Source: Gammaproteobacteria bacterium
GTDB taxonomy: Bacteria; Pseudomonadota; Gammaproteobacteria; Pseudomonadales; UBA5518
Assembly: GCA_016705365.1 (NCBI GenBank)
Contig: JADIYI010000008.1
Coordinates: forward strand, 1,349,572 to 1,413,571
DNA length: 64,000 bases
Direction: 5' to 3'
Shown here one piece after another: positions 36,825-63,165 of this stretch (the stretch's first letter is position 1; the number at the start of each line of letters is the position of its first letter). The translations under genes and the position numbers were made by a program. The notes beneath the pieces were generated by a model. That model was not told the origin of the DNA, did no database searches, and saw only the letters and a list, made by a program, of their open reading frames with translations.

Positions 36825-38384
36825 GTGAACGAGATCGATTCCCTGCCCCTTACCATGCCTCGCCTGCTGGCCTGGGCCGCGGCGCGGGCTCCAGAACGCA
36901 TTGCGCTGGAGGAAGCGGGGCTGCAACTCGATTACGCCGCGTTGGATGCGGCTCGCCGCCGCGCGGCGAAAGCCTTTCTTGCCGCGGGCACAGGCCATGG
37001 CGATCGCGTCGCGATCTGGGCGCCGAATCGTCATGAGTGGATCGTGGCCGCGACCGGCGCCCAGAGCATCGGGGCGATCGTGGTGCCGCTCAACACGCGG
37101 ATGAAAGGTGCGGAGGCGGGCTATATCCTGCGCCGCAGCGGCGCGCGCATGCTGTTCACGGTCGGCGAGTTTTCCGGCAATCGCTATCCGCAGATGCTCG
37201 AGGGTATCGAACTGCCGGCGCTGCAGCGAGTGTTGTGCTTCGGAGAAGCTGATTGGCTGGAGTTTCTTGCGGCCGGGGAGGGCATCGACGAGGCCGTGCT
37301 CGCGGCGCGCGAAGCGGCGGTGCAGCCCGAGGACACGCTCGATCTGATGTTCACCTCCGGCACCACCGGCAATCCCAAGGGGGTGATGACCGGGCACGGG
37401 CAGAATATTCGCGCCTTCGATACCTGGAGCCGCACGGTCGGGCTGTGCGCCGATGACAATTACCTGATCATCAATCCTTTCTTTCATTCCTTCGGCTACA
37501 AGGCCGGCTGGATGGCGGCGATCATCCGCGGCGCGCGCATCCTGCCGGTCGCGAGCTTCGATGTCGACGAGGTGTTGCGGCGCATCCAGTTCGAGCGCGT
37601 CAGCATGCTGCCGGGGCCGCCGACCATCTACCAGTCCCTGCTGGCGCATTCCGAGCGGCGCAATTACGATCTCTCGTCGTTGCGTCTCGCGGTTACCGGC
37701 GCGGCGTTGGTGCCGCTCGACCTGATCCGGCGCATGCGCAGCGAGCTCGGATTCCGCACCGTGCTGACCGCCTACGGGCTTACCGAGACCTGCGGCGTGG
37801 TAACCGTCAGCAGCGTCGACGATGCGCCTGAACTGATCGCGACCAGTGCGGGGCGCGCGATGCCGGGGGTCGAGCTGCGATGCGTGAACAATGGCGGGGT
37901 CGCGGTTCCTGCCGGGGAACCGGGCGAGGTGCAGGTGCGTGGCTACAACGTCATGCAGGGCTATTTCGATGATCCCGAAGCGACCGCGGAGGCGATCAGC
38001 GCCGATGGCTGGTTGCATACCGGCGACATCGGCGTGATGAATGAAGACGGGTATCTGCGCATCACCGACCGCATCAAGGACATGTTCATCGTCGGCGGCT
38101 TCAACTGTTATCCGGCGGAGATCGAGAATCTGCTGTGCTCGATGGAAGGGGTGGCCCAGAGCGCGGTGATCGGGGTCGCGGACGAGCGCATGGGCGAAGT
38201 CGCCAAGGCATTTATCGTGCGCCGCCCGGGCGCTTCGCTCGAGGCCGACGAGGTGATTGCGTGGTGCCGGCGCAACATGGCGAACTACAAGGTACCGCGC
38301 AGCGTGGAGTTTCTCGATGCGCTGCCGCTCAATGCCGCGGGCAAGGTGCTGAAAACCACGTTGCGGGCGCTGGAAAACGCGTGA
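36825..38384 (+). CDS. AMP-dependent acyl-CoA synthetase (FadD3-like)
   Basis: TSGTTGNPKGV AMP-binding motif, YGLTE, GWLHTGD; GTG at 36825 after GGAGG. Confidence 0.85.
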   Translation: MNEIDSLPLTMPRLLAWAAARAPERIALEEAGLQLDYAALDAARRRAAKAFLAAGTGHGDRVAIWAPNRHEWIVAATGAQSIGAIVVPLNTRMKGAEAGYILRRSGARMLFTVGEFSGNRYPQMLEGIELPALQRVLCFGEADWLEFLAAGEGIDEAVLAAREAAVQPEDTLDLMFTSGTTGNPKGVMTGHGQNIRAFDTWSRTVGLCADDNYLIINPFFHSFGYKAGWMAAIIRGARILPVASFDVDEVLRRIQFERVSMLPGPPTIYQSLLAHSERRNYDLSSLRLAVTGAALVPLDLIRRMRSELGFRTVLTAYGLTETCGVVTVSSVDDAPELIATSAGRAMPGVELRCVNNGGVAVPAGEPGEVQVRGYNVMQGYFDDPEATAEAISADGWLHTGDIGVMNEDGYLRITDRIKDMFIVGGFNCYPAEIENLLCSMEGVAQSAVIGVADERMGEVAKAFIVRRPGASLEADEVIAWCRRNMANYKVPRSVEFLDALPLNAAGKVLKTTLRALENA

Positions 38385-38386
38385 AC

Positions 38387-38878
38387 ATGGCTCCGGCGCG
38401 CACCACGTTCCTGGGCGAGATGGCCTCGCTCGATGATGTGGACCGGCGCCTGATCGAACTGTTGCGCGCCGATGGGCGGATGGCATTTCGCGCCCTTGCC
38501 GATGCGCTCGGTGTCACCGAATCGGGGGCGCGGGCGCGGGTGCGCCAGCTCGAGACCTCGGGTTTCATGAAGGTGGTGGCGGTAGCCGATGCCGAGGCCG
38601 CCGGTTTCGAATTGCTGCTGGCGGTGGGCGTTGAAGTCGAGGGGCGGCCGGCACTCGAGGTTGCCGAGGCGCTGGCCGCGTTGCCGGAAGTGTTTTCGGT
38701 GAGCCAGGTGGTCGGTACCTACGATATCGAGTTGCTGATGGTGGCGCGTGATCACGAGCACCTCGCGGAGCTCGTTACCGCGACGCTGGTGCGTATCCCG
38801 GGAGTGCGGCGCATTCTTACCGGCCTCGCGGTGGATGTGCTGAAGAATCAGCCGGACTGGGTGCCGTTCGATGACTAG
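38387..38878 (+). CDS. Lrp/AsnC-family transcriptional regulator
   Basis: LDDVDRRLIELLRADGRMAFRALADALGVTESGARARVRQLE HTH; starts 2 nt after the ligase stop. Confidence 0.8.
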   Translation: MAPARTTFLGEMASLDDVDRRLIELLRADGRMAFRALADALGVTESGARARVRQLETSGFMKVVAVADAEAAGFELLLAVGVEVEGRPALEVAEALAALPEVFSVSQVVGTYDIELLMVARDHEHLAELVTATLVRIPGVRRILTGLAVDVLKNQPDWVPFDD

Positions 38879-39374
38879 ACGGCGTCTCGACGAGGTGGAC
38901 CGGCGCATACTCGATTACCTGTCGCGTGATGCGCGTACCAGCAACCGGCGCATCGCCGATGAGCTCGGCGTCACCGAGGGCACGGTGCGTGCGCGCATCA
39001 AGCGGATGGAAGACGAGGATCAGATCCGGATAACCGCGCTGACCAATATCCGCAAGCTCGACAACCCGACGCTGGCGTTCATCTGGATCGAGGTCGATCG
39101 CGGTGCGCAGTGCCGGGAGGTTGCCGAAGCGCTGGCGCACGATCCGCAGATCGGCTTTGTCGCGGTGATGGTTGGTCGATTCGACATACTCGCGATCACG
39201 CTGGTGCAGTCGGCGGCACAGTTGAGCGAATTCCTGCACAGCACGGTGCACGCAATCCCGGGCGTGCGGCACACGGAGTGCTCGCTGGGTGCGCGTTTCG
39301 TGAAGCACGATTACCGGATCAGTCGAATCGTGAGGAGGCCGGAAGAGATCCATGCTGGCGTCCGAATTGCGTAG
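38871..39374 (+). CDS. Lrp/AsnC-family transcriptional regulator
   Basis: LDEVDRRILDYLSRDARTSNRRIADELGVTEGTVRARIKRME HTH; 8-nt overlap with the preceding Lrp gene. Confidence 0.85.
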   Translation: MTRRRLDEVDRRILDYLSRDARTSNRRIADELGVTEGTVRARIKRMEDEDQIRITALTNIRKLDNPTLAFIWIEVDRGAQCREVAEALAHDPQIGFVAVMVGRFDILAITLVQSAAQLSEFLHSTVHAIPGVRHTECSLGARFVKHDYRISRIVRRPEEIHAGVRIA

Positions 39375-39432
39375 ATTGAGGATTAAAATTTGGTGTACTT
39401 TATAAATATATGGCTTTGATGGCCTTGTATGC

Positions 39433-39456
39433 GTAAAATTGCACAATTAATTTTAC
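39433..39456. promoter_or_regulatory. candidate operator: 8-bp inverted repeat in a strongly AT-rich intergenic region
   Basis: gtaaaatt-gcacaatt-aattttac lies within the 39375-39518 AT-rich spacer between the Lrp genes and the CoA-transferase operon. Confidence 0.3.
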
Positions 39457-39518
39457 TATTTGAGTGTTCGCCGCGTATTCCGGCGGGTCGTTATGGCTAA
39501 GGGCAGGAGAGATTGCGG

Positions 39519-40397
39519 ATGAACAAGGTGATGAATGCCGGCGAGGTGGTCAGGAAGCTCGACAGCGGTATGACGATTGGTATCGGTGGCTGGGGGCCGC
39601 GGCGCAAGCCGATGGCGCTGGTGCGCGAGATCCTGAGGTCCGATATCAAGGATCTGACCGTGGTCGCCTACGGTGGCGCGGATGTGGGCATGCTGTGCGC
39701 GGCGGGCAAGGTGCGCAAGCTGGTATTCGCGTTCGTGTCCCTGGATTTCATCCCGCTCGAGCCCTGGTTTCGCCTGGCGCGCCAGAATGGCAGCATCGAG
39801 ACCATGGAGATCGACGAGGGCATGTTCCTGCTGGGGTTGCGCGCGGCCGCGATGAAGCTGCCGTTCCTGCCGACCCGCATTGGCCTCGGAACCGATGTGC
39901 TCAAGTACAACCCGCAGATCAAGACCATAGTGTCGCCCTATGCCGATGGGCGCGAGCTGGTCGCGATGCCGGCGCTCGAGCTCGATGCGGCGCTGATTCA
40001 CGTCGATCGCGCGGATGCGCGCGGGGTGTGCCAGATCAAGGGGCCCGATCACTACATGGACGATGTGTTCGCGCGCGCGGCGCGTGAGACTTTCGTGAGC
40101 TGCGACGAGTTGGTCGAGAGCAGTTTTTTCGCCTCTGCGGAAGAGGCGCGTCATGTGTACTGGGAGCGCTCGGAGACCACCGGCGTGGTGCATATCCCGG
40201 GTGGCGCGCACCCCAGCAGCTGCAACCCGTTGTATGGCTTCGACGTGGCGCATTTCAAGACCTACGCAGCCTCCGCAGGCGCGGAAAACGGCTGGCAGGA
40301 ATACATGCAGAAATACGTGGGTGCTTCCGAGGAACACTACCGGGAGCAGGTTGGTGGCCTCGCGGCCATCCGCAAGCTTGCCCTGCCCACGTATTGA
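39519..40397 (+). CDS. CoA-transferase subunit A (IpdA-like)
   Basis: GMTIGIGGWGPRRKPMALVREI glutaconate-CoA-transferase-type motif; ATG at 39519 after AGGAGA. Confidence 0.85.
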   Translation: MNKVMNAGEVVRKLDSGMTIGIGGWGPRRKPMALVREILRSDIKDLTVVAYGGADVGMLCAAGKVRKLVFAFVSLDFIPLEPWFRLARQNGSIETMEIDEGMFLLGLRAAAMKLPFLPTRIGLGTDVLKYNPQIKTIVSPYADGRELVAMPALELDAALIHVDRADARGVCQIKGPDHYMDDVFARAARETFVSCDELVESSFFASAEEARHVYWERSETTGVVHIPGGAHPSSCNPLYGFDVAHFKTYAASAGAENGWQEYMQKYVGASEEHYREQVGGLAAIRKLALPTY

Positions 40398-40410
40398 AAG
40401 GAGACACCCC

Positions 40411-41211
40411 ATGAATGCACCGGACTACACGCTCGCGGAATTGATGATCACGGCAGCCTCCGAGGCCTGGCGCGGCGACGGTGAAGTGCTCGCCACTGGC
40501 ATTGGCCTGTTGCCGCGGCTCGCGGCATCACTGTCGATGCTGAGCAGCAATCCGGACCTGCTGATGACGGACTCAGAGGCTTTCCTGCTGTCGGCACCGA
40601 ACCCGGTGGGGGCGCGTGCTGCCGATTTTGCGCCGGCTTACGAGACCTGGATGGGCTTCTCGCGCATCTTCGACAACGTCTGGGGCGGCAAGCGCCATGC
40701 GATGGTCGGGCCGACCCAGATCGATCGCTTCGGGCAGGCCAATATTTCCTGCATCGGGGACCATGCAAAACCCAAGGTGCAGATGCTCGGGGTGCGCGGT
40801 TTTCCCGGCAATTCGATCAGTCACGCCAATTCCTTTTTCGTGCCCGCGCACAACAATCGCGTGTTCAAGTCGGGGGAGTGTGACACGGTCTGCTCGATCG
40901 GCTACAACCCGGCGCGTCTGGCAAAGGGATACCGCCTCGGTGAGGTCGATATCCGCCTTATCATCACCGATCTGTGCGTGATGGATTTCGGTGGCCCCGG
41001 GTACCAGATGCGCATCCGCTCCCTGCATCCGGGCATCGGCGTCGAACAGGTGCAGCAGAACACCGGCTTCGAGCTCTGCATACCTGCCGCTATCCCGGTC
41101 ACCGCGGCACCCACCGAAGAGCAGTTGGCAATCATCCGCCGTATGGATCCGCACAACCTGCGCGCGCGCGAGTTGAAGGACAATCCACCCGGCGACCGTT
41201 CGCGCGGATAA
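40411..41211 (+). CDS. CoA-transferase subunit B (IpdB-like)
   Basis: MNAPDYTLAELMITAASEAW...; adjacent to subunit A; GGAGA RBS. Confidence 0.85.
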   Translation: MNAPDYTLAELMITAASEAWRGDGEVLATGIGLLPRLAASLSMLSSNPDLLMTDSEAFLLSAPNPVGARAADFAPAYETWMGFSRIFDNVWGGKRHAMVGPTQIDRFGQANISCIGDHAKPKVQMLGVRGFPGNSISHANSFFVPAHNNRVFKSGECDTVCSIGYNPARLAKGYRLGEVDIRLIITDLCVMDFGGPGYQMRIRSLHPGIGVEQVQQNTGFELCIPAAIPVTAAPTEEQLAIIRRMDPHNLRARELKDNPPGDRSRG

Positions 41212-41222
41212 GGACCGATCCA

Positions 41223-42293
41223 ATGTCCGAAATGCTGCATACCCGTCTGACCGAGCTACTGGGTTGCCGTTATCCCATCGTGCAGACCGCGATGGGCTGG
41301 GTGGCCGATCCCCGGCTCGTTGCCGCGACCGGCAATGCCGGTGGTTTTGGTTTCCTGGCCGGGGCGACCATTCCTGCGCAGCAGATGGAAGCCGATATCC
41401 TGCGCACCAAGGAACTGAGCAGCGCGCCGTTTGGCGTGAATTTCCATATGTACCAGCCGAATGCGGCGGCAATCGTCGACCTGGTGGTGAAGCACGGTGT
41501 GCGCGCGGTCAGTTACAGCCGTTCGCCCGGGCCGGCGTTCATCCGCAAGCTCAAGGATGCGGGCGTGGTGTGCATGCCCACCGTAGGCGCGGTCAAGCAC
41601 GCGGTGAAAGCGGTCGAGCTGGGTGCCGATGCGGTGACTGTGCAGGGTGGCGAGGGTGGCGGTCACACCGGTTCGGTGCCGACCACGCTGTTGCTGCCCG
41701 ACGTGGTGTGCCGGGTGAAGGTGCCGGTGATCGGTGCCGGTGGCTTCAAGGACGGGCGTGGACTGGTGGCGGCGATGGCTTTCGGTGCCGAGGGCATCGC
41801 GATGGGCACCCGCTTTCTGATGACCAGCGACAGCCCGGTGCCGCTCGCCACCAAGCAGCGCTACCTGAGCTGTGCGAACCCGGCCGATATCATCGTCTCG
41901 CGGGCGATAGACGGCATGCCGCAACGCATGGTGATGAACGAGATGCTCGGTGAGCTGGAGCGCGCCGGCGCCCTGAAAAAACTGTTGATCGCGCTGCGCA
42001 ATGGCCTGGCGTTTCGCCGCCACACCGGCGCGGGCATCCTGCAATTGCTGAAATCCGCGATCGCGATGCAGCGTGACGACGACGGTCTGACGCTCTCGCA
42101 GGCAATCATGTCGGCCAATGCGCCGATGATCATCCAGCGCGCGATGGTCGATGGTCACCCCGAACAGGGCGTGTTGCCGAGCGGACAGGTCGCCGGCGTG
42201 ATCTCCGACCTGCCGGACTGCGCGGAACTGATTGCACGCATCGTTGCCGAGGCCGAGGAGTGCCTGGGTGCGCTGGCGGCACGGTCGAAATGA
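41223..42293 (+). CDS. nitronate monooxygenase-family FMN enzyme (NMO; IpdC-like)
   Basis: RYPIVQTAMGWVADPRLVAATGNAGGFGFL and GGEGGGHTG motifs. Confidence 0.85.
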   Translation: MSEMLHTRLTELLGCRYPIVQTAMGWVADPRLVAATGNAGGFGFLAGATIPAQQMEADILRTKELSSAPFGVNFHMYQPNAAAIVDLVVKHGVRAVSYSRSPGPAFIRKLKDAGVVCMPTVGAVKHAVKAVELGADAVTVQGGEGGGHTGSVPTTLLLPDVVCRVKVPVIGAGGFKDGRGLVAAMAFGAEGIAMGTRFLMTSDSPVPLATKQRYLSCANPADIIVSRAIDGMPQRMVMNEMLGELERAGALKKLLIALRNGLAFRRHTGAGILQLLKSAIAMQRDDDGLTLSQAIMSANAPMIIQRAMVDGHPEQGVLPSGQVAGVISDLPDCAELIARIVAEAEECLGALAARSK

Positions 42294-42440
42294 CGAGAGA
42301 AGCCATGCGGAGCTTGCGAATCCGGCCGCCGTGCCGGTCTCGATGACGGGAACTCCGCGCCTTGGCTCGAAATCGAAGTGCCGGCGTGTGGGTTCGATTC
42401 TTTGGATGCACCAGGAAACTACTGCAGGAGCGACCCCGAT

Positions 42441-43199
42441 ATGAGCAAACCATTCAGCACCACGATCGGTGAAGGTATCGCGGAACTGGTGTTCGACCAT
42501 CCGCCGGTGAATGCGTTCGACAGCGCGGGCTGGGCGGCGATTGCCGCCGAGATCGAGGCGCTCGGAACCAACGATGCGGTGCGCGTGATCATCATCGCGG
42601 CCGAGGGGCGCGGTTTCTGCGCCGGCGTGGATATCAAGGAGCTGGCCTCCGACCGCTCGCTGATCGTGAAGGTCAACAAGGGCAATTACGATACCTTTCG
42701 CGCGGTACATCTGAACCCGAAGCCGGTGATCGTGGCGGTGCATGGCTTCGTGCTGGGCGGCGGCATCGGGATCAGCGGCGCGGCGGATATCGTGGTGGCA
42801 TCCGAGTGCGCGCGTTTTGGCGTACCCGAGGTCGATCGCGGCGCGATGGGCGGCGGGGCGCATCTGCAGCGCCTGTTCCCGGTACAGAAAGTGCGTTACA
42901 TGTATTTTACCGGCGAGATGATCGACGCCGCCGAAGCCTATCGTCTCGGCGCCGTCGAGCGCGTGGTACCGCGCGCGCAGTTGCGTGCCGCGGCGCGCGA
43001 GATCGCGGTCAAGATCGCGGCCAAGAGCCCGGCGATGATCAGCCTTGCCAAGGAGGCGCTCAACGGAATCGAGGACGGCAACCTCGAGGACAAGTACCGC
43101 GGCGAACAGGGCTTCACGCTGGAGGCGTACTCCACCAAGGATTCGCAGGAAGCGCGTGATGCATTCGTGCAGAAGCGCGATGCGAAATTCACCGGCTGA
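42441..43199 (+). CDS. enoyl-CoA hydratase/isomerase family protein (EchA20-like)
   Basis: FCAGVDIKEL and GFVLGGGIGISGAADIVVAS crotonase motifs. Confidence 0.88.
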   Translation: MSKPFSTTIGEGIAELVFDHPPVNAFDSAGWAAIAAEIEALGTNDAVRVIIIAAEGRGFCAGVDIKELASDRSLIVKVNKGNYDTFRAVHLNPKPVIVAVHGFVLGGGIGISGAADIVVASECARFGVPEVDRGAMGGGAHLQRLFPVQKVRYMYFTGEMIDAAEAYRLGAVERVVPRAQLRAAAREIAVKIAAKSPAMISLAKEALNGIEDGNLEDKYRGEQGFTLEAYSTKDSQEARDAFVQKRDAKFTG

Positions 43200-43217
43200 A
43201 TACGGAACCACAGACGC

Positions 43218-44384
43218 ATGAACCTGGAATTCACCCCCGCGCAGAACGCGTTCAGGCAGGAAATCCGCAGCTGGCTCGCGGCGCATGTGCCGGCCGAACC
43301 GTTGCCGAGTTTCGATACCGCGGAGGGCTTCAGGCAGCACCGCGCGTGGGAGGCAAAGCTCAACAGCGGCCGCTGGGGCATGGTCACCTGGCCGCAAGAG
43401 CTCGGTGGGCGCGGCTGCGATCTCATCGAGTGGCTGATCTTCGAGGAGGAATACTGGCGTGCCGGCGCACCGTTGCGGGTAAACCAGAACGGCATCTTCC
43501 TGCTCGGCCCCACCTTGATGGAATACGGCACCGCCGAGCAGAAGCAGCGCTTCCTGCCAAAAATGGCAACCGGTGAGGAGGTGTGGTGCCAGGGCTGGTC
43601 GGAACCCGGTGCCGGATCGGATATGGCGGCGATTCGCGCCAAGGCCGAGCGCCGGGGTGATCACTACGTGATCAACGGCCAGAAGACCTGGTCGACGCGT
43701 GCGGTATGGGCCGACTGGTGCTTCGGCATGTTCCGCTCCGATCCCGCTTCCGAACGGCACAAGGGCCTCACGTTCATCCTCGTGCCGATGAATCTCGAGG
43801 GCATCACCGTGCGTCCGATCCCGCAGCTCGATGGACTGCCCGGTTTCGCGGAAATATTTTTCGACAACGTGAAGGTGCCCGTTGATTGCCGCCTCGGTGA
43901 CGAGGGGCGTGGCTGGAGCGTCGCGATGGCAACGGCCGGCTTCGAGCGCGGCCTGATGCTGCGCAGCCCGGCGCGCTTTCAGCAGACCGCCGCCCGGCTG
44001 GTCCAGCTCTACCGGGCCAACCGCACCAGCGCCGATCGCGATCCCGCGGTGCGCGATGCGGTGATCCGCGCCTGGATGGATGCCGAGGCCTATTGCCTGA
44101 CCACCTACCAGACCGCCTGCCGCCTGATCAATGGCGGCAAGATCGGCGAGGAGGCCAGCACCAACAAGATTTTCTGGTCGGAGCTCGATCAGCGCATGCA
44201 CGAAACCGCACTCGCGATTCTCGGTGCGCGCGCCGAGCTGTTGCCGCACGCACCGGATGCCGGCGATGTCGGCAACTGGCTCGACGGTTTCCTGTTTTCG
44301 CAGTCCGGCAGCATCTACGCCGGTGCCAACGAGATACAGCGCAACATCATTGCCCAGCGTCTGCTCGGCATGCCGCGCGCCTGA
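43218..44384 (+). CDS. acyl-CoA dehydrogenase
   Basis: 388 aa; WCQGWSEPGAGSD and YAGANEIQRNIIAQRLLG motifs. Confidence 0.9.
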   Translation: MNLEFTPAQNAFRQEIRSWLAAHVPAEPLPSFDTAEGFRQHRAWEAKLNSGRWGMVTWPQELGGRGCDLIEWLIFEEEYWRAGAPLRVNQNGIFLLGPTLMEYGTAEQKQRFLPKMATGEEVWCQGWSEPGAGSDMAAIRAKAERRGDHYVINGQKTWSTRAVWADWCFGMFRSDPASERHKGLTFILVPMNLEGITVRPIPQLDGLPGFAEIFFDNVKVPVDCRLGDEGRGWSVAMATAGFERGLMLRSPARFQQTAARLVQLYRANRTSADRDPAVRDAVIRAWMDAEAYCLTTYQTACRLINGGKIGEEASTNKIFWSELDQRMHETALAILGARAELLPHAPDAGDVGNWLDGFLFSQSGSIYAGANEIQRNIIAQRLLGMPRA

Positions 44385-44397
44385 GCGGAGAACCCGG

Positions 44398-45447: not shown

Positions 45448-45491
45448 CAATCCGGACGATTCCGGAATCATGAACAACAGAGGATCGAACA

Positions 45492-46643: not shown

Positions 46644-46821
46644 GTGAGGCGAGGCCGCCGCCCGGCACCACACCTGCGGGACACGCCGTAAACACATCCC
46701 TGTGGGCTCCGGCGTCGCCATCCAGGCGACGCAGGGTCCCGCTAGCGTGGTGCCGGGCAGCGGCCTCGCGACCAGGTTGGTGGGAGCGACGGATATTGGA
46801 TAGTTGTCGTGCCAGCGACGC

Positions 46822-47112
46822 AGGGCAGCGCTCGGGGCGGGCTCGCGCTTGAGCGCGCTTTGTTCGGAAAATCGTCGGGAACGATTTTGCGAACAACGGT
46901 AGCCGCCGCACAGGGATGTGCCAGGCGGCGGTAGCGGGAGCGCGAGCCCGCCCCGGGCGCTGCCCGGAATACCTGGCAAGGTGTTGGCATGGCGAAAGCG
47001 CGAGCCCGCCCCGGGCGCTGCCCGGAATTCATGGCAATGACTTGGAATTGCCAGAGCGAGAGCCTCGCCCCGGGAGGAGCCCGGAATACGTGGTAATGCG
47101 GAGACGAGCGGA
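46822..47112. repeat. intergenic repeat cluster: one inverted copy plus three tandem (~58-bp period) copies of a GC-rich core
   Basis: Core gcgcgagcccgccccgggcgctgcccggaat at 46939 and 46997, degenerate at ~47055, reverse-complemented at 46822-46857. More nested inverted repeats lie between 46648 and 46920. Confidence 0.7.
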
Positions 47113-47146
47113 AATTTGAAGTTGCAGCGAAACAGGAGCGAAGCAA

Positions 47147-48028
47147 ATGGCGGGACTATGTGACGGACGGGTGGTGATCATTACCGGGGCCGGTGGCGGG
47201 CTGGGGCGCGAGTATGCGCTTGCCTTTGCGGCAGAGGGTGCGCGGGTCGTGGTCAACGACATCAATGCGCAGGCCGCGCAACGCACCGTGGCGGAAATCG
47301 AGGCGCGCGGCGCGCGCGCGATTGCCAACACCGGGGATATCACCAGCTACGCGGATGCGGGCACAATCGTGAAGGCCGCGCTCGATGCCTTTGGCGATCT
47401 GCACGTGGTGGTGAACAACGCCGGCATCTGCCGTGACCGCATGTTCGTGAGCCTCAGCGAGCAGGACTGGGACGAGGTGATCCGGGTGCATCTGAAAGGG
47501 CATTTCTGCATCAGCAGTCATGCCTGCAACCATTGGCGCGCGCAGGCCAAGGAAGGACACAAGGTCAGCGGCCGGATCATCAATACCAGTTCCGGTGCGG
47601 GTTTGCAGGGCGCGGTCGGGCAGGCGAACTATTCCGCCGCAAAGGGTGGTATCGCCTCGCTCACGCTGGTACAGGCCGCGGAGCTGCGACGCTACAACGT
47701 CACCGCAAACGCACTGGCGCCGTCGGCGCGCACCGGTATGACCGAAAACGTATTCGCGGACATGATGAAAAAACCCGAGGATGGCAGCTTCGATCAATAC
47801 GACCCGGCCAACGTGGCGCCGCTGGTGGTGTGGCTCGGCAGCGAGGCATCGGGGCAGGTAACGGGTCGTGTGTTCGAGATCGAGGGCGGGCGCATTGCGA
47901 TTGGCGATGGCTGGCGCAGCACGGCGGGCATCGATGCCGGGCGACGCTGGGAACCCGCGGAAGTCGGCTCGGCCATGGAGAAGCTGCTGGCCGACGAAGT
48001 GCCGGCGCAGAAGGTATTCGGTACCTGA
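47147..48028 (+). CDS. SDR-family oxidoreductase (hydroxyacyl-CoA dehydrogenase-like)
   Basis: VVIITGAGGGLGREYAL, NNAGI, YSAAKGG catalytic motif. Confidence 0.88.
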   Translation: MAGLCDGRVVIITGAGGGLGREYALAFAAEGARVVVNDINAQAAQRTVAEIEARGARAIANTGDITSYADAGTIVKAALDAFGDLHVVVNNAGICRDRMFVSLSEQDWDEVIRVHLKGHFCISSHACNHWRAQAKEGHKVSGRIINTSSGAGLQGAVGQANYSAAKGGIASLTLVQAAELRRYNVTANALAPSARTGMTENVFADMMKKPEDGSFDQYDPANVAPLVVWLGSEASGQVTGRVFEIEGGRIAIGDGWRSTAGIDAGRRWEPAEVGSAMEKLLADEVPAQKVFGT

Positions 48029-48091
48029 GCAGCGCATTCGGAGCAGGCGGGCCGCTTTGCCCGGGTGGCGAGCGAGAGACAGGAACAATCG

Positions 48092-49249
48092 ATGGAATTC
48101 GCATTTACCGAAGAGCAGCAGATGATCCGCGAGACCGCGGCGCAGTTTCTTGCCGACAACAGCGCATCCGCGGCTGTGCGCGCGGCGATGGCCGGCGAAA
48201 CCGGCTTCGACGCGACGCTGTGGCAGCGTATCTGTGGCGAGATGTGCTGGAGCGCGATCCACATTCCCGAGGCCTTTGGCGGTCTCGGGCTCGGCTATGT
48301 GGAACTCGCCGCAGTGCTCGAGGAGATGGGCAAGCACCTGTTGTGCGCGCCGTTTTTCTCATCGGTCTGTCTCGGCGCCAATGCGCTGCTGGTTGCGGGA
48401 AGCGAGCAGCAGAAAGCTGAATTCCTGCCGCGCATCGCGGATGGATCGCTGCGCGCCACGCTGGCGTGGTGTGACGCCTCGGGTCGCTGGGATGGCAATG
48501 GCATCAGTGCGCAGTGCACGCGCCGGAACGAGCAATTCCTGCTGAACGGAAGCTACCGTTTCGTGGTCGATGGCCACAGCGCGGACCTGCTGATCGTCGC
48601 GGCACGCGCACCGGGAAGCGTTGGCAACGAAGGCCTCAGCCTGTTCGCGGTGGCAGCCGATACGCCCGGCATCAGGCGCAGCTGGCTGCCGGGCATGGAC
48701 CAGACGCGCAAGCTGGCGCAGATCGAATTCGATGATGTCCTGATCGATGCCGTGGCGCTGCTCGGCGAAGAGGGTGTGGCGTGGCAGGCACTCGAGCGGA
48801 CGCTGCAACTCGCGACCATCGCGCTCGCCGCCGAGCAGGCCGGCGGCGCGCAGCGGATTCTCGACATGACGGTTGCCTACACCAGGGAACGACAGCAGTT
48901 CGGCCGCGCCATCGCGAGTTTCCAGGCGATCAAGCACAAGGCCGCCGACATGATGCTGAAGGCCGAATCCTCTCGCTCGGCGGTGTACTACGCCGCCTGC
49001 GTTGCCCAGGAGGCGTTCGCGGGCGGCCCGCTCGGCAGCGAGCTCGCGAGCGCCGCGAGCCTCGCCAAGGCCTGGTGCAGCGAGGCGTATTTCCACAACG
49101 CGGGCACCGCGCTGCAACTGTACGGTGGCGTGGGTTTCACCTGGGAATACGATGTGCATCTGTACTTCAAGCGGGCCCGCGCCAGCGAGAGTTTTCTCGG
49201 CGATGCGAGCGCGCATCGCGAACGCATTGCGCTGGGGTTGGACTTATGA
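48092..49249 (+). CDS. acyl-CoA dehydrogenase
   Basis: MEFAFTEEQQMIRE...; RQQFGRAIASFQAIKH. Confidence 0.88.
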   Translation: MEFAFTEEQQMIRETAAQFLADNSASAAVRAAMAGETGFDATLWQRICGEMCWSAIHIPEAFGGLGLGYVELAAVLEEMGKHLLCAPFFSSVCLGANALLVAGSEQQKAEFLPRIADGSLRATLAWCDASGRWDGNGISAQCTRRNEQFLLNGSYRFVVDGHSADLLIVAARAPGSVGNEGLSLFAVAADTPGIRRSWLPGMDQTRKLAQIEFDDVLIDAVALLGEEGVAWQALERTLQLATIALAAEQAGGAQRILDMTVAYTRERQQFGRAIASFQAIKHKAADMMLKAESSRSAVYYAACVAQEAFAGGPLGSELASAASLAKAWCSEAYFHNAGTALQLYGGVGFTWEYDVHLYFKRARASESFLGDASAHRERIALGLDL

Positions 49250-50439
49250 ATCTCGGGTTCAGCGAACAGGACGAGCGTTTTCGCGCGCAAGTGGCCGCGT
49301 GGCTGCGCGAGAATTTGTGCGGGGAGTTCGAGAAGATCCGCTTTCGCGGCGGCCCCGGCGACGAACACATGTACTCGGCCGAGCGCAAGGTCTGGGAGCA
49401 GCGCATGGCAGCGGGCGGCTGGACCTGTATCGGCTGGCCGCGGGCATACGGCGGTCGTGACGCGAGCATCGAGCAGCAGGTGATTTTCCACGAGGAGTAC
49501 GCACGGGCCGGCGGACCGGGCCGGGTCGGTCATATCGGTGAAGGCCTGGCCGGCCCCACCATCATCGCCTACGGCAGCGAGGAGCAGAAACAACGCCTGT
49601 TGCCGGGAATACGTGCCGGCACCGAGTTGTGGTGCCAGGGCTATTCCGAACCCGGTGCGGGTTCCGACCTGGCGAATGTCAAAACCCGCGCGCGTCGCGA
49701 CGAGGCCAGCGGCAGCTGGCTGATCAACGGCCAGAAGGTCTGGACATCGCTGGCGCACGAATCCGACTGGTGCTTCGTGATCGCGCGCACCGATCCGCAA
49801 TCGGTCGGTCATGCGGGTCTGGGTTTTTTCCTGGTGCGCATGGCCCAGCCCGGAGTCACGGTACGCCCGATCGAGCAACTGACGGGCACCTCGGAGTTCA
49901 ACGAGGTGTTCTTTGACGATGCCATCTGTGAGGCAAACGACATGCTCGGCCAGCCCGGTGAGGGCTGGAAAATCGCCATGGCGCTGCTCGGTTTCGAGCG
50001 TGGTACCTCGACCCTGGGCCAGCAGATGCTGTTCCAGAACGAACTCGACGAAGTGGTGCGTATCGCGCGCGAGAACGGTCGCGGCAAGGATCCGGTGCTG
50101 CGTCAGCGCATTGCGGATGCCTGGATCGGCTTGCGCATCATGCGCTACAACGCGATGCGCATGCTGTCGGGCACGGCCGACGGTTCACTTTCGCGCGAAG
50201 CGATGATCTACAAGCTGTACTGGGCAGTGTGGCACCGCAACCTCGGCAAGCTGGCGATGGATGTGCTCGGCCCGGAAGCCGAGATTCTCGAAGCGGCGCC
50301 CTACGGCCTGAGCCGGCTCCAGTCGCTGTTCCTGTTCACGCGCTCGGATACCATTTACGGCGGCACCAACCAGATCCAGCGCAACATCATCGCCGAGCGG
50401 GCGCTCGGCATGCCCAAGGAGCCGCGCGTGCGCGGTTGA
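49246..50439 (+). CDS. acyl-CoA dehydrogenase
   Basis: MNLGFSEQDERFR...; WCQGYSEPGAGSD; YGGTNQIQRNIIAERALG; ATGA overlap with the upstream ACAD gene. Confidence 0.88.
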   Translation: MNLGFSEQDERFRAQVAAWLRENLCGEFEKIRFRGGPGDEHMYSAERKVWEQRMAAGGWTCIGWPRAYGGRDASIEQQVIFHEEYARAGGPGRVGHIGEGLAGPTIIAYGSEEQKQRLLPGIRAGTELWCQGYSEPGAGSDLANVKTRARRDEASGSWLINGQKVWTSLAHESDWCFVIARTDPQSVGHAGLGFFLVRMAQPGVTVRPIEQLTGTSEFNEVFFDDAICEANDMLGQPGEGWKIAMALLGFERGTSTLGQQMLFQNELDEVVRIARENGRGKDPVLRQRIADAWIGLRIMRYNAMRMLSGTADGSLSREAMIYKLYWAVWHRNLGKLAMDVLGPEAEILEAAPYGLSRLQSLFLFTRSDTIYGGTNQIQRNIIAERALGMPKEPRVRG

Positions 50440-50474
50440 TGCGCCGGTACCAGACTCAATACGGGGAACGATCG

Positions 50475-51260
50475 ATGTCACTGTCACCACGTTATGTAGA
50501 AGGCCACGAGCTGCTGGCCGGAAAATCGGTGCTGATCACGGCCGCGGCCGGCGCCGGAATCGGCTTTGCCGCCGCGAGAAAATGCGTGGAGGAGGGCTGC
50601 CGCGCGATATTCGTCAGCGATATCCACGAGGGGCGCACCGCGCAGGCGGTCGAGGCGCTGAAGGCGCTCGGTGGCACGCAGTTGGTGTTCGGCAGGGTTG
50701 CGAACGTGACCGTCGAGGAGCAGGTGCAGGCGCTCATCGACGAAGCCGAGACAAGGCTCGGCGGCGTCGACGTGCTGATCAACAACGCCGGTCTCGGTGG
50801 CACGAAGCCGCTGGTCGACATGAGTGACGAGGAGTGGTTCCGGGTGCTCGACATCACCCTGAACGGCACCATGCGCATGATGCGCGCGATGCTGCGCATC
50901 ATGCAGCCGCGCCAGGCGGGCGTGATCGTCAACAACGCCTCGGTGCTGGGCTGGCGCGCGCAGCCCGATCAATGTCATTACGCCGCGGCCAAGGCTGGTG
51001 TGATGGCGCTGACCCGCTGCGCGGCGATGGAAGCCGCGCCGTTCGGTATCCGCATCAACGCGGTGTCACCCTCGCTCGCGATGCACGATTTCCTGAAGAA
51101 GACCACGCCGGTCGAACTGCTGCGGGCACTCGAGGCAAAGGAGGCCTTCGGCCGCGGTGCGGAGGTGTGGGAGGTGGCGAACGTGATGGTGTTCCTCGCC
51201 AGCGACTACGCGAGCTACATGACCGGAGAGAACGTGCCGGTCAGCAGCCAGCACGCCTGA
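50475..51260 (+). CDS. SDR-family oxidoreductase (IpdF-like)
   Basis: KSVLITAAAGAGIGFA, NNAGLGG, YAAAKAG. Confidence 0.88.
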   Translation: MSLSPRYVEGHELLAGKSVLITAAAGAGIGFAAARKCVEEGCRAIFVSDIHEGRTAQAVEALKALGGTQLVFGRVANVTVEEQVQALIDEAETRLGGVDVLINNAGLGGTKPLVDMSDEEWFRVLDITLNGTMRMMRAMLRIMQPRQAGVIVNNASVLGWRAQPDQCHYAAAKAGVMALTRCAAMEAAPFGIRINAVSPSLAMHDFLKKTTPVELLRALEAKEAFGRGAEVWEVANVMVFLASDYASYMTGENVPVSSQHA

Positions 51261-51391
51261 TCGCGCATACTCGGCGCGGCGCGCCGGGTGTCACATTTGG
51301 TCATGCGCAATCGGAGTCTGCGGACAATCGCTTTGGCTGCGCGAAAAGTATACTGGCACGGATTCAATAACACGGCTGCGAGGATATTCCC

Positions 51392-53539
51392 ATGTCACGG
51401 ACTGCCTATTCCCATCTGCTTTCGCCCGGTCGCATCGGCACCCTCGAATTGCGCAATCGCATCGTCGTGGCCGCGATGGGCGCCAATTTCGGTGAACTGG
51501 ACGGCGCGAGCAGCGAACTCCTCGTCGCCTACCACGAGGAGCAGGCGCGTGGCGGCGTCGGGCTGATCGTCTCGGGCGCCTGCGGCGTGATGTACCCGGT
51601 GGGGAAGGTACAGCCGTGGCAGATCGCGATCTCCGAGGACCGCTTCATTCCGGGGCTGAAAAAAGTCGTCGATGCCGTGCATCGTCACGGGGCAAAGTTT
51701 GCGGTGCAGTTGCACATGGGCGGCCTGGTGGCGGGCGACGACACGCGCGAGGGACGCCCGCAATGGTGCCCGTCCGTGCCTGAACCCATGAAGGGCGATT
51801 TCATCGACGGCTTTCTGCTGGATGAGCTGAAGTCCTTCGCGGGCGCCGGGGTGCCGACCTACAAGGTGCTGGAGCACGAGGACATTCAGGTCGTGGTGAA
51901 AGCCTACGCCGCGGGTGCGCGGCGTGCAAAGCAGGCGGGTTGCGACGCCGTCGAGATCCACGGCGGGCACGGTTACCTGCTGTCGTCGTTCCTCTCGCCA
52001 AAAACCAACAAGCGCACTGACGAGTACGGCGGGAGCGTGGAAAACCGCTCGCGCTTCCTGCTCGAGGTAGTGCGTGCGGTGCGTGCCGAGGTCGGCGCCG
52101 ATTTTGCGGTGTGGGTCAAGCTCGATTCGCGCGAGGTGGGCAAGGAAGGCGGCATCACGCTGGAGCACGCAACGGCCACGGCACGGCTGGTGGAGGCGGC
52201 GGGTGCGGATGGGATCGCGGTCAGTGCCTACCACGATACCGGCCAGGGCAAGCTGCATTCGGGCTCGAATATTCCGCATGAGCCGAATACCAATCTCCCG
52301 GCGGCCGCCGCGATCAAGGCGGCAGTCTCGATATCGGTCATCGCTGCGGGCCGGGTGGAGCCCGAGCACGCCGATGCCGAGATCCGGGCCGGCAAATTCG
52401 ATTTTCTGGCCATGGGCCGCAAGCTGCTGGCCGACCCGCAGCTGCCGAACAAGCTCGCGGCGGGCAAGGTGGACGAGGTCCGCCCTTGTATCTATTGCTA
52501 TACCTGCGTCAGCGCGATCTACACCCGCGAACGCATGCGCTGTGCGGTGAATACCGAGCTCGGTATCGAATACCTGCGCGTGAATGCGCCCCGGCCCTCG
52601 GTGCGCAAACGCGTCGTGGTGGTCGGCGGCGGGCCTGGCGGCATGGAAGCGGCGCGACGCCTGGCGCGTGACGGACACGAGGTCGTGCTGCTCGAGAAGA
52701 GCGAGCGGCTCGGCGGCACGCTGCGTTTTGCCGCGCTGGCCTATGCCGCGAACGAACGCCTGCTCGACTGGCTGCGCCTGCAGATCGAGACCTCGGATGT
52801 CGACCTGCGGCTCAATACGCTGGCGACCCCCGAGTTGCTGAAATCGCTGCATCCGGACGAGGTGGTGGTGGCGACCGGCGCGCGGCGCAACATGCCGCCG
52901 ATTCCCGGCAGCGAACTCCCGCACGTGTTCAGTGGCGACGATATGCGCGGGATGATGCTCGGCGACAGTTCACCGGCCCTGCAGCAGAAGACGTCGCTGC
53001 TCACGCGTATAGCGACCAAGGCGGGTGCGGCAACAGGGCTCACCGCGAATCTCGATTTCGTGCGCAAGGCCACGCACGCCTGGATGCCGCTCGGCAAAAG
53101 CGTCGCGATCATCGGCGGCGAACTGGTGGGGCTGGAACTCGCGGAATTCCTGGTCGAGCGCGGGCGCAGCGTCACGATCATCGACGAGGCGCCGCGCTTC
53201 GGCGCCGGCATGACGCTGGTGCGGCGTCTGCGGCTGCTCGCCGAGTTGCGCGAACACGGGCTCGGCCTGTATCCCGGTTCGAAGGACATCCGCATCGCGA
53301 CCGGGAAGGTCGCGTTTGTCGACAGCGCGGGCACTGCGCACAGCGTTGCCGCCGAGCACGTCATCGTGGCCAAGGGTGCGACCGGCGATTCCACGCAGGC
53401 CGACGCCTTCCGCGCCGCGGGTCTGCGTGTTCACGAGGTCGGCGACGGCAGCGGTGTAGGCTATATCGAGGGCGCGATGCGCGGTGCGCTGCGCGCGGTG
53501 GATGCAATCAATGCGGGGGAAGCGGTTACGGGACCCTGA
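51392..53539 (+). CDS. NADH:flavin oxidoreductase of the 2,4-dienoyl-CoA reductase family (OYE domain, 4Fe-4S, FAD/NAD domain)
   Basis: LLSPGRIGTLELRNRIVVAAMG, GCDAVEIHGGHGYLLSSFLSP, CIYCYTC, VVVVGGGPGGMEAA. Confidence 0.88.
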   Translation: MSRTAYSHLLSPGRIGTLELRNRIVVAAMGANFGELDGASSELLVAYHEEQARGGVGLIVSGACGVMYPVGKVQPWQIAISEDRFIPGLKKVVDAVHRHGAKFAVQLHMGGLVAGDDTREGRPQWCPSVPEPMKGDFIDGFLLDELKSFAGAGVPTYKVLEHEDIQVVVKAYAAGARRAKQAGCDAVEIHGGHGYLLSSFLSPKTNKRTDEYGGSVENRSRFLLEVVRAVRAEVGADFAVWVKLDSREVGKEGGITLEHATATARLVEAAGADGIAVSAYHDTGQGKLHSGSNIPHEPNTNLPAAAAIKAAVSISVIAAGRVEPEHADAEIRAGKFDFLAMGRKLLADPQLPNKLAAGKVDEVRPCIYCYTCVSAIYTRERMRCAVNTELGIEYLRVNAPRPSVRKRVVVVGGGPGGMEAARRLARDGHEVVLLEKSERLGGTLRFAALAYAANERLLDWLRLQIETSDVDLRLNTLATPELLKSLHPDEVVVATGARRNMPPIPGSELPHVFSGDDMRGMMLGDSSPALQQKTSLLTRIATKAGAATGLTANLDFVRKATHAWMPLGKSVAIIGGELVGLELAEFLVERGRSVTIIDEAPRFGAGMTLVRRLRLLAELREHGLGLYPGSKDIRIATGKVAFVDSAGTAHSVAAEHVIVAKGATGDSTQADAFRAAGLRVHEVGDGSGVGYIEGAMRGALRAVDAINAGEAVTGP

Positions 53540-53640
53540 GTCGTGTGGTGGTGGAAACGGCTTCTGTGGATACAGCACGTGCTTCGACGCCAAACGTATC
53601 GAAAAAGTACGCGTCGTCAGCACGATGGTCGTTGCGGCGC

Positions 53641-53712
53641 CTATATACCGGCAATTGCCTCATCCACATCCCGGTTGGCTTGGCCGCGGGGGATGACAGG
53701 CTTGGCTTTCAC
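53641..53712 (-). pseudogene. parE: ParE-family toxin gene remnant (23 codons then TAG)
   Basis: A GTG overlapping the parD stop (GTGA) encodes VKAKPVIPRGQANRDVDEAIAGI*, which matches ParE N-termini. No continuation is seen in any frame. Confidence 0.5.
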
Positions 53713-59203: not shown

Positions 59204-59206
59204 GAC

Positions 59207-63097: not shown

Positions 63098-63136
63098 ATC
63101 TGCAAAAACGTCGTTACGACATAAGATGAAAGCGGC

Positions 63137-63165
63137 ATATTAGCGCTGAAATTACGCGCTGTAAA
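63137..63165 (-). promoter_or_regulatory. putative sigma70 promoter of the R-M operon
   Basis: Minus strand reads TTTACA, a 17-nt spacer, then TAATAT in an AT-rich stretch ~40 nt upstream of the hsdS ATG. Confidence 0.3.

Follow-up and report, generated by a model that had tools for sequence, protein, structure and literature searches.

The question raised by this locus is which compound is degraded by a long row of acyl-CoA genes in an uncultured gammaproteobacterium from wastewater. The sequence-only reading had proposed the last two steroid rings, C and D, i.e., the degradation of HIP. HIP, 9,17-dioxo-1,2,3,4,10,19-hexanorandrostan-5-oic acid, is the two-ring remnant left once rings A and B are gone. 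The closest named relatives of the host are Halieaceae and Spongiibacteraceae, among which isolated steroid degraders are known (PMC5790920). The cluster occupies positions 36825/36855–53539 of the analysed stretch of 64 kb (the window) and comprises 15 genes, all on the plus strand, according to GC3-based gene calling and independent calls from four publicly available assemblies of this species. Families were assigned with NCBIfam and Pfam, and gene calls and assignments agreed with the families first listed. A long minus-strand ORF (38285–38908) was rejected as spurious, the first Lrp gene being read from the plus strand. The cluster is surrounded by housekeeping genes, with PDH and FabV upstream, in a synteny shared across Halieaceae-like genomes. 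The remaining sizeable ORFs in the window were either housekeeping or part of a type I restriction-modification island.

The first gene (36855–38384, with an alternative GTG start at 36825; public callers use both starts) encodes a HIP-CoA ligase of the FadD3/ScdA/StdA3 type. It passed the NCBIfam equivalog NF005801, “FadD3 family acyl-CoA ligase”, with 736.8 bits (cut-off 657), and its homologs in Halieaceae-like loci were 59–77% identical and unchanged in position. The CoA-transferase-like pair was indeed of the IpdAB type. IpdA/ScdL1 (39519–40397), the alpha subunit of COCHEA-CoA (ring C) hydrolase, matched best the PDB structures of IpdA from R. jostii (6CO6_A, 2.4e-76, 48% identity) and M. 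tuberculosis (6CON_A, 3e-73), whereas the next match, glutaconate CoA-transferase, reached just 1e-25. The beta subunit IpdB/ScdL2 (40411–41211) matched 6CO6_B (3.5e-53, 42% identity) and 6CON_B (9e-48), followed by the next match at 1.8e-14. The lead of IpdAB structures over true CoA transferases was 40–50 orders of magnitude in E-value. In addition, the catalytic Glu of IpdA is kept as Glu100, the same residue that is mutated in 6COJ (DEG to DAG). The following gene (41223–42293) encodes an NMO-family flavoenzyme (Pfam NMO, 229 bits) in the position of ScdK and was assigned to the IpdC/ScdK type. It was FabK-like in NCBIfam (219 bits, under cut-off), a likeness described for IpdC by Crowe et al. 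(PMC5380842). The EchA20/ScdY-type crotonase (42441–43199), in the position of ScdY, passed PRK07938 with 376 bits (cut-off 260), and its homologs were 78–93% identical in 80 gammaproteobacterial genomes.

Four ACAD genes were arranged in two adjacent pairs. The large subunit of the first pair (43218–44384) holds the position of ORF21 (PMC8399759, Table 1) and is of the FadE31/ORF21 (ScdM1) type, with best PDB matches to ChsE4 (4X28_A, 5e-52) and an IpdE1 homolog (6WY9_A, 7e-50). Its small partner, of the FadE32/ORF22 (ScdM2) type (44398–45447), lacks the middle domain, Pfam detecting the N and C domains alone; its best NCBIfam match, IpdE2, stayed at 141 bits under a cut-off of 450. The second pair consists of a ScdC1/IpdE2 (FadE33) type subunit (48092–49249; NCBIfam IpdE2, 198 bits, under cut-off; IpdE2 homolog 6WY8_A, 2.4e-42) and a ScdC2/IpdE1 (FadE30) type subunit (49246–50439), for which the top PDB match was the IpdE1 homolog 6WY9_A (7.6e-49). 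Among PDB structures, the large subunits were thus closest to the heterotetrameric (alpha2beta2) steroid ACADs ChsE4 and IpdE1. Three further genes passed their NCBIfam models and hold the corresponding scd positions: the FadA6/ScdF-type thiolase (45492–46643; PRK07801, 696 bits, cut-off 591), the ScdE-type SDR (47147–48028; PRK07791, 446 bits, cut-off 373) and the IpdF/ScdG-type SDR (50475–51260; PRK07831, 427 bits, cut-off 336).

The cluster is interrupted between the thiolase and the ScdE-type SDR by a repeat-rich spacer of 503 bp (46644–47146), which contains a Y-shaped hairpin repeat (46649–46769), an inverted partial copy (46810–46850) and three tandem 58-nt repeats (46934–47098). The Y-shaped hairpin showed strong covariation and gave no match in Rfam. 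It is an element dispersed genome-wide and not specific for the cluster.

From IpdA through the second SDR, the gene order IpdA-IpdB-NMO-Ech-ACAD-ACAD-Thl-SDR-ACAD-ACAD-SDR was collinear with that of the scd genes in C. testosteroni CNB-2, ScdL1-L2-(N)-K-Y-ORF21-ORF22-F-E-C1-C2-G (PMC8399759, Table 1). The unit was kept in 80 gammaproteobacterial genomes with 55–93% identity, in Halieaceae-like gammaproteobacteria as 14 genes that include a tandem pair of Lrp/AsnC regulators. A BphC/TesB-type extradiol dioxygenase was found directly upstream of ipdA in 24 of the 80 (Pseudomonas, Endozoicomonas and related), and two Pseudomonas loci had a KshB-type reductase near the cluster as well. To judge from its sequence, the region very probably encodes the canonical lower pathway by which bacteria degrade steroids. 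The FadD3 equivalog, the IpdAB structures, the ChsE4/IpdE1 matches, the collinearity with scd and the TesB-type neighbours in these 24 genomes carry this assignment further than it was originally proposed.

With the same enzymes, the organism could possess the lower pathway only. Instead of degrading whole steroids, it would then scavenge bicyclic or alicyclic acids, of the HIP type or other, that neighbouring degraders set free or that stem from non-steroid terpenoids. No A/B-ring genes were present within the 64-kb window, as had been stated, neither among the ORF families nor with TesB-like and KshB-like queries from relatives. Side-chain steroid genes were absent from it as well, and the neighbourhood is of the housekeeping kind described above. 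Likewise, a TesB-type gene was never found within 10 kb of the cluster in the class-II architecture. Regulators and a ligase of its own are also part of the cluster, which could therefore act as a self-contained module from uptake to central metabolism. However, HIP and A/B-ring clusters are often apart in steroid degraders; in C. testosteroni a region of 120 kb has the tes cluster at one end and the scd cluster at the other (10.64898/2026.09.18.752586). Cholesterol supports growth of Halieaceae isolates, and KshA/HsaC-type matches occur in metagenomic Halieaceae (PMC5790920). For a genome of about 3 Mb, 64 kb devoid of A/B-ring genes are little informative, and we regard a lower pathway on its own as unlikely.

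A non-steroid origin was suggested by the names of the ACADs, since three of the four had a pimeloyl-CoA dehydrogenase subunit (pimC_large or pimD_small) as their best name in NCBIfam, and cyclohexanecarboxyl-CoA dehydrogenase models matched too. All of these matches were far under their cut-offs (e.g., 241 vs. 624 bits), and ACADs of the FadE31/32 type are expected to resemble PimCD because their substrate is a dicarboxyl-CoA. Genes for IpdAB, the FadD3 equivalog and IpdC are absent from pim and bad/ali clusters, and the order of genes is that of the scd cluster, which makes dicarboxylate or alicyclic-acid beta-oxidation of the pimeloyl-CoA or cyclohexanecarboxylate type very improbable. A generic beta-oxidation operon for fatty or branched-chain acyl-CoA is hardly credible: ligase, ACAD, crotonase, SDR and thiolase superfamilies do occur in ordinary beta-oxidation, but the matches to FadD3 and the IpdAB structures are specific at the equivalog level, the ACADs are paired as heteromers, there is an NMO-type flavoenzyme, and the conserved gene order runs collinear with that of characterised steroid clusters.

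For HIP degradation, we infer substrates and the order of steps by orthology to the Ipd enzymes of M. tuberculosis/R. jostii and the Scd enzymes of C. testosteroni. The FadD3-type ligase would form HIP-CoA, and the propionyl side chain would be shortened by the ScdC1C2/IpdE1E2-type ACAD pair, a hydratase missing from the cluster, the ScdE-type SDR as putative 3-hydroxyacyl-CoA dehydrogenase, and a thiolase. The enone HIEC-CoA would then be made by the IpdF-type SDR together with the flavoenzyme of the IpdC type, the latter introducing the double bond into 5-oxo HIC-CoA. Ring D would be opened hydrolytically by the EchA20-type crotonase and ring C by IpdAB, after which the FadA6-type thiolase is predicted to release acetyl-CoA. 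The resulting methyl-oxo-octanedioyl-CoA may enter beta-oxidation via the FadE31/32-type ACAD pair.

The two regulators, encoded at 38387–38878 and 38871–39374, each carry HTH_AsnC-type and AsnC_trans_reg domains. Their genes overlap by 8 nt and the proteins are 35% identical; for the first, every NCBIfam Lrp-type match remained under its cut-off. They correspond neither to KstR2 nor to TesR, and both are kept together in 35 class-II loci. Between them and ipdA lies an AT-rich intergenic region (39375–39518, 40% GC), a candidate promoter/operator by composition and motif search, with the inverted repeat GTAAAAT-N10-ATTTTAC at 39433–39456. The motif ATGCGTAGAAT...ATTTTACTG was found again at the same location in the closest MAGs, L005–L007 and L022. 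Expression of the cluster is probably governed by the tandem pair via this region. For Sphingobium sp. Chol11, too, a tandem Lrp/AsnC pair has been noted within the bile-salt cluster (PMC12882949).

The last gene (51392–53539) encodes a three-domain OYE/Fe-S/FAD flavoprotein of the FadH/NCR/BaiCD class, with best PDB matches to 2-naphthoyl-CoA reductase (6QKG, 1e-73) and FadH (1PS9, 3e-60). It shares the three-domain build of the large OYE Fe-S flavoenzymes 5beta-delta4-KSTD1, CasH, BaiCD, FadH and 2-naphthoyl-CoA reductase, and its Fe-S motif, C366-x2-C-x2-C-x11-C384, has the Cys spacing reported for 5beta-delta4-KSTD1, whereas it scored only 409 bits against the BaiCD equivalog cut-off of 825. 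It had been counted as a cluster gene of dienoyl-CoA-reductase type; it is present and adjacent, but not a conserved member, being absent from the HIP loci of all 80 relatives. Orthologs in other genomes occurred in different contexts, some of them steroid-like, and none adjoined a HIP cluster. Since the gene adjoins the cluster in this species only, its membership is unproven. The protein probably acts as an accessory enzyme, either an ene-reductase or a dehydrogenase, and may or may not serve the HIP pathway.

In comparison with the cluster of C. testosteroni TA441/CNB-2, tesB-scdL1L2-N-K-Y-ORF21/22(M1M2)-F-E-C1C2-G-D-ORF33/J, the enzyme families, the order from ScdL1 to ScdG and a ScdA/FadD3-type ligase are shared. 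Here, however, the ligase heads the cluster, there is no adjacent tesB, the Fe-S flavoprotein is additional at the 3' end, and a tandem Lrp/AsnC pair stands against the LuxR-type TesR. The ScdN- and ScdD-type hydratases and the terminal second thiolase (ORF33/ScdJ type, carried by 27 relatives) were not found in the window. The HIP clusters of Pseudomonas (P. stutzeri Chol1, P. putida DOC21, Metapseudomonas resinovorans) and Endozoicomonas have the same core order with 66–83% protein identity. Unlike in the present cluster, ipdA is preceded in these class-I clusters by the TesB-like dioxygenase, a ScdN-like crotonase separates ipdB from ipdC, and the Lrp pair is missing. In many of them the ScdC1C2-type ACAD pair is also absent or displaced, as has been reported for P. 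stutzeri Chol1 (10.64898/2026.09.18.752586). The complement is nearly identical to the KstR2 regulon of M. tuberculosis and R. jostii RHA1 (fadD3, ipdAB, ipdC, echA20, fadE30-33, fadA6, ipdF, Rv3548c/49c), with one ligase, IpdAB (48% and 42% identity to the RHA1 proteins, catalytic Glu kept), IpdC, one crotonase, four ACADs, one thiolase and two SDRs. In contrast, the TetR-type KstR2 is absent, the host is proteobacterial, and the genes form one co-directional array instead of divergent operons. The cluster is an ordinary, well-conserved version of the known HIP gene cluster, which differs from the textbook versions in its regulator pair.

Because the G+C content of the window is approximately 64%, most of its long ORFs are spurious, and the genes were picked out by filtering the ORFs on codon-position G+C. 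One clear series was obtained, located between 36.5 and 53.5 kb and lying entirely on the plus strand. It starts with a ligase (36855-38384, or from an alternative GTG start at 36825) and two Lrp/AsnC regulators (38387-38878 and 38871-39374), followed by CoA-transferase-like alpha and beta subunits (39519-40397 and 40411-41211), an NMO-family flavoenzyme (41223-42293), a crotonase (42441-43199), a first pair of acyl-CoA dehydrogenases, ACADs (43218-44384 and 44398-45447), and a thiolase (45492-46643). After a spacer of 503 bp come a first SDR (47147-48028), a second ACAD pair (48092-49249 and 49246-50439), a second SDR (50475-51260), and a 715-aa flavoprotein of the OYE type (51392-53539). Public gene calls on four assemblies with identical proteins (GCA_016707795.1, GCA_017984115.1, GCA_020054605.1, and ENA ERZ23795167, labelled Pseudomonadales or Gammaproteobacteria MAGs) agreed with the filtered series, so the inventory of 15 genes and the coordinates proposed in the sequence-only reading were correct. 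A minus-strand ORF at 38285-38908 was discarded as second regulator, since its translation is Arg/His-rich nonsense and the true gene is the one on the plus strand at 38387-38878. In two public assemblies of the same species, L003 and L004, the small ACAD gene seems to be cut at its 3' end and the thiolase gene at its 5' end, and truncated proteins stand in the annotations. The apparent deletion of 640-760 bp is in reality a scaffold gap of 100 N, read directly in L003 (14622-14721) and inferred for L004 (14495-14594) from an identical 100-bp replacement.

The ligase passed the NCBIfam equivalog model for FadD3 (NF005801), scoring 736.8 bits where 657 were required. For the CoA-transferase-like alpha and beta subunits the best PDB match was IpdAB of R. 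jostii RHA1 (6CO6; 2.4e-76 and 3.5e-53, at 48% and 42% identity, respectively). IpdAB of M. tuberculosis (6CON) was also among the best solved relatives, while the next one, glutaconate CoA-transferase, matched at merely 1e-25 (alpha) and 2e-14 (beta). The alpha chain of 6COJ differs from that of 6CO6 by a Glu-to-Ala exchange (DEG to DAG), and the aligned Glu is kept in the window protein as Glu100. As a discriminator, the Glu found in the beta subunit of true CoA transferases was rejected, since the alignment with 1POI_B was one residue off around TDSEA/ESG and too ambiguous. The crotonase passed PRK07938, the thiolase PRK07801 (696 vs 591 bits), the first SDR PRK07791, and the second SDR PRK07831 (427 vs 336 bits); PRK07801 and PRK07831 are models which we take to be tied to Rv3556c and Rv3559c, respectively. 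The NMO-family protein matched Pfam NMO and is FabK-like, as IpdC was likewise described by Crowe et al. (PMC5380842). Its gene and that of the crotonase adjoin ipdAB in the places taken by ScdK and ScdY, and on grounds of synteny we infer that the two are orthologues of the characterised IpdC/ScdK and EchA20/ScdY.

The four ACAD genes form two adjacent pairs of a large and a small subunit. The large subunits had their best PDB matches in ChsE4 (4X28) and an IpdE1 homolog (6WY9), both of which are steroid heterotetrameric ACADs. Against the IpdE2 model the small subunits reached 141 and 198 bits, under the cut-off of 450; one of them has no middle domain, and the other matched the IpdE2 model and 6WY8_A best, yet under the curated cut-off. 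Identities as PimCD or cyclohexanecarboxyl-CoA dehydrogenase were dismissed, as the scores fell far under the curated cut-offs. Judged by position, the first pair would correspond to FadE31/32 (ScdM1M2) and the second to FadE30/33 (IpdE1E2, ScdC1C2).

A scan with the crotonase as query, limited to one genome per species, gave 80 gammaproteobacterial loci with homologs of 78-93% identity. With few exceptions, the genes around this homolog were counterparts of the window genes, arranged in the same order. Two architectures could be recognized. In class I, comprising 24-27 loci from Pseudomonas citronellolis, P. pseudonitroreducens, other Pseudomonas, Endozoicomonas, Ferrimonas, Amphritea, and Zestomonas, a BphC/TesB-type extradiol dioxygenase lies immediately 5' of ipdA, and ipdB is separated from the NMO gene by an extra crotonase. 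Related genomes in which the orthologous cluster borders on a TesB-like gene number 24, and a KshB-type reductase lies close by in two of the Pseudomonas loci. Class II consists of 35 loci, including the four assemblies of the window's species, and covers Halioglobus, Haliea, Parahaliea, Seongchinamella, Sediminihaliea, and many MAGs. Here, a FadD3-type ligase and the tandem Lrp pair stand upstream in place of the class I genes. The class II loci often also share a FabV-MBL neighbourhood, which argues for vertical inheritance. A second thiolase follows the last SDR in 27 relatives, mostly of class II; the window cluster is of class II, with the flavoprotein instead of this thiolase.

The order in the window, IpdA-IpdB-NMO-crotonase-ACAD-ACAD-thiolase-SDR-ACAD-ACAD-SDR, is also that of Comamonas testosteroni CNB-2, i.e., ScdL1 (RS06515), ScdL2, [ScdN], ScdK, ScdY, ORF21, ORF22, ScdF, ..., ScdE, ScdC1, ScdC2, and ScdG (RS06580) (PMC8399759, Table 1). 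The same table equates the Scd genes with IpdA, IpdB, IpdC, EchA20, FadE31, FadE32, FadA6, FadE33/30, and IpdF. Due to this collinearity a pathway step can be assigned to each window gene. The FadD3 equivalog pass, the structure matches of IpdAB, and the scd-like gene order together support the original proposal of a cluster for degradation of steroid rings C and D, that is, of HIP, the two-ring remnant left once rings A and B are gone. We consider the window cluster very probably a member of the canonical HIP cluster, which according to reviews is conserved in every steroid degrader, whether aerobic or anaerobic (PMC8399759, PMC5790920).

A course of degradation can be proposed from the characterised orthologs (PMC5380842, 10.1101/2023.02.02.526766). 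The ligase would activate HIP. Shortening of the propionyl side chain would require the ScdC1C2/IpdE1E2-type ACAD, the ScdE-type SDR, and a thiolase, along with a hydratase for which no gene is present here. HIEC-CoA would then be formed via the IpdF-type SDR and the IpdC-type flavoenzyme, and ring D would be opened by the EchA20-type crotonase. IpdAB and the FadA6-type thiolase are predicted to open ring C with release of acetyl-CoA, after which the FadE31/32-type ACAD would start the oxidation of methyl-oxo-octanedioyl-CoA. The ScdN/ScdD hydratases and a second thiolase are absent locally.

The cluster had also been likened to the KstR2 regulon of Mycobacterium tuberculosis. This likeness holds for the enzyme set and fails for the regulator: the actinobacterial regulon is under the TetR-type repressor KstR2, whereas the window cluster contains two Lrp/AsnC genes and neither a TetR (KstR2) nor a LuxR (TesR) gene. 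KstR homologs were reported absent in bile-acid-degrading Proteobacteria (PMC8399759), and for the bile-salt cluster of Sphingobium sp. Chol11 a tandem Lrp/AsnC pair has been mentioned but not characterised (PMC12882949). Both window proteins have an N-terminal HTH_AsnC and a C-terminal AsnC_trans_reg (RAM) domain. Lrp, AsnC, LysM, and other equivalog models all scored under cut-off, and neither protein is therefore orthologous to a named regulator. The two genes overlap by 8 nt, their products share 35% identity, and the pair is kept with the cluster throughout class II. The gap of 144 bp between the second Lrp gene and ipdA (39375-39518) has 40% G+C in a genome of 64% G+C, and holds a unique inverted repeat, GTAAAAT-N10-ATTTTAC, at 39433-39456. 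The halves of the repeat come back in the closest MAGs (L005-L007, L022), which carry a related motif, ATGCGTAGAAT...ATTTTACTG, at the equivalent site. In Halieaceae proper the gap measures only 20-50 bp. As judged from its sequence, the inverted repeat is a plausible candidate operator.

The Fe-S flavoprotein (51392-53539) is built like FadH and BaiCD, with an OYE barrel, a 4Fe-4S cluster, and a FAD/NAD domain. Among solved structures it is closest to 2-naphthoyl-CoA reductase and E. coli FadH. The best NCBIfam model was BaiCD (409 bits vs a cut-off of 825). This identity was rejected at about half of the cut-off, and the protein was placed at family level only. Its cysteine motif, C366-x2-C-x2-C-x11-C384, shows the spacing given for 5beta-delta4-KSTD1 of Sphingobium sp. 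Chol11 (PMC8044976). The flavoprotein had been counted as part of the cluster, and as a conserved member it did not stand: none of the 80 related loci contained a homolog, including those in which the sequence 3' of the second SDR was covered, and the gene follows the cluster only in assemblies of the same species. Its orthologs lie elsewhere, in unrelated or differently steroid-like contexts, and were not consistent with a conserved cluster member. Two further types of gene context harbour orthologs of 66-69% identity. In Sphingomonas sp. KC8, a degrader of oestrogens and androgens, the ortholog (locus L085; CP016306.1, 2284342-2306495) adjoins a protein with its best solved match in 3-ketosteroid delta4-(5alpha)-dehydrogenase (4AT0, 5e-62), and the locus also has two SDRs, two luciferase-like oxidoreductases, and SnoaL-like proteins. 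In Pseudohalioglobus lutimaris and a Halioglobus MAG (L086 and L090) it closes a conserved operon of TetR, DUF1214, sulfotransferase, 3beta-HSD-like, polyketide-cyclase-like, ABM, and SDR genes, flanked by sulfatases and a TonB receptor. By their composition, both gene sets look like uncharacterised steroid- or sterol-sulfate-modifying ones. Other orthologs were in unrelated lipid-type contexts. Plausible substrates of the flavoprotein would be a steroid nucleus or a CoA ester with a double bond, and SteD/Sor1, an OYE-like reductase of 12-dehydroxylation, provides a functional precedent.

No A/B-ring genes (kshAB, kstD, tesB/hsaC, tesD/hsaD) were found within the 64-kb window, as had been stated from the sequence, and the remaining window genes include no steroid genes. 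Upstream are genes for ALAD, ProRS, AspRS, RuvCAB, Tol-Pal, NadA, peptidases, and PDH E1/E2, as well as those for a cNMP-binding protein, FabV, an MBL-fold protein, a MATE transporter, and a GGDEF protein. On the other side, a type I restriction-modification island of lower G+C lies downstream of the cluster, and NamZ comes after it. We regard it as unlikely that the lineage possesses the lower (C/D-ring) pathway only, as a self-contained module under the tandem Lrp pair, and cross-feeds on leaked HIP-type intermediates, the range of usable unsaturated intermediates being widened by the flavoprotein. If true, a Halieaceae-like wastewater lineage would live on intermediates from other degraders of steroids, bile acids, or oestrogens. 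Growth on cholesterol is on record for Halieaceae and Spongiibacteraceae isolates (PMC5790920). Assignment to the canonical HIP cluster is the reading that we retain.

The island directly 3' of the cluster (53540-63300; G+C 0.59-0.62) contains a minus-strand ORF of 467 aa without Pfam match (54310-55713), a type I hsdR (55988-59203), a Bro-N protein (60124-60975), and hsdM (60972-62783), and is probably an inserted defence island. It also includes a YgjP fragment; an intact YgjP-like gene is located at 17139-18005. At 14661-17100, a tRNA-Lys(UUU) gene is followed by approximately 2.4 kb of lower G+C (0.59), with ORFs giving no confident family match and a weak match to 2OG-Fe(II) oxygenases at 15342-16097. 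This stretch may be a small island remnant at the tRNA gene.

The spacer 3' of the thiolase (46644-47146) holds a Y-shaped hairpin of 120 nt at 46649-46769 (core 46684-46708), with a free energy of -94.9 kcal/mol and z = -8.4. Its invariant core is CGCCGT-RAA-hairpin-GGCTYG-hairpin-ACRG, in the window CGCCGTRAAYMCRTCCMTGKRGGCT...ACGG, and its outer stem is wholly variable in sequence and always self-complementary. Among 67 hairpin instances, compensatory changes were seen in 24 of the 29 predicted pairs. The hairpin had no Rfam match, and its sequence was not found in published literature. Copies were also present in the comparison loci L005, L006, L045, L048, L052, L054, L058, L060, L062, L067, L068, L071, and L074, and in metagenome loci from L091 on. 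In the related genomes every copy lies in intergenic gaps of the HIP cluster. The metagenome scan gave at least 120 stretches, with one near HIP genes among the matches listed, and no recurrent neighbour gene among the loci listed. Both orientations are found among the copies, which frequently form inverted pairs at a distance of 180-300 bp. A regulatory RNA specific for the HIP cluster was rejected on these observations; the scatter, the lack of a recurrent neighbour, and the two orientations indicate a dispersed repeat which is not part of the HIP-cluster finding, probably an undescribed REP/MITE-like structured repeat of Proteobacteria. In the same spacer, three tandem repeats of 58 nt (GCGAGCCCGCCCCGGGCGCTGCCCGGAATAC...) lie at 46934-47098, just 5' of the SDR gene, and an inverted partial copy lies at 46810-46850, 90 bp ahead of them; of the 29-nt core only these two exact copies exist in the 64-kb window.

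Compared with textbook HIP clusters, the window has another regulator type, a ligase-first layout, no linked ring-cleavage dioxygenase, and neither local ScdN/ScdD hydratases nor a second thiolase. These differences are unsurprising for a specialist, and knowledge of the HIP pathway itself is unchanged. The identical IpdB protein appears in the entries of 59 blocks of the assembly collection; 22 contigs carrying it were read. The finding adds an uncultured, frequently assembled wastewater gammaproteobacterium to the organisms with the canonical HIP pathway. It further records a second architecture of the cluster in gammaproteobacteria, with the ligase and the tandem Lrp/AsnC pair at the head and no adjacent ring-cleavage dioxygenase, which seems to be characteristic of Halieaceae-like bacteria. 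The result is of use in annotating the potential for steroid and hormone removal in activated sludge and marine metagenomes, and points to an uncharacterised type of regulator for the HIP pathway.
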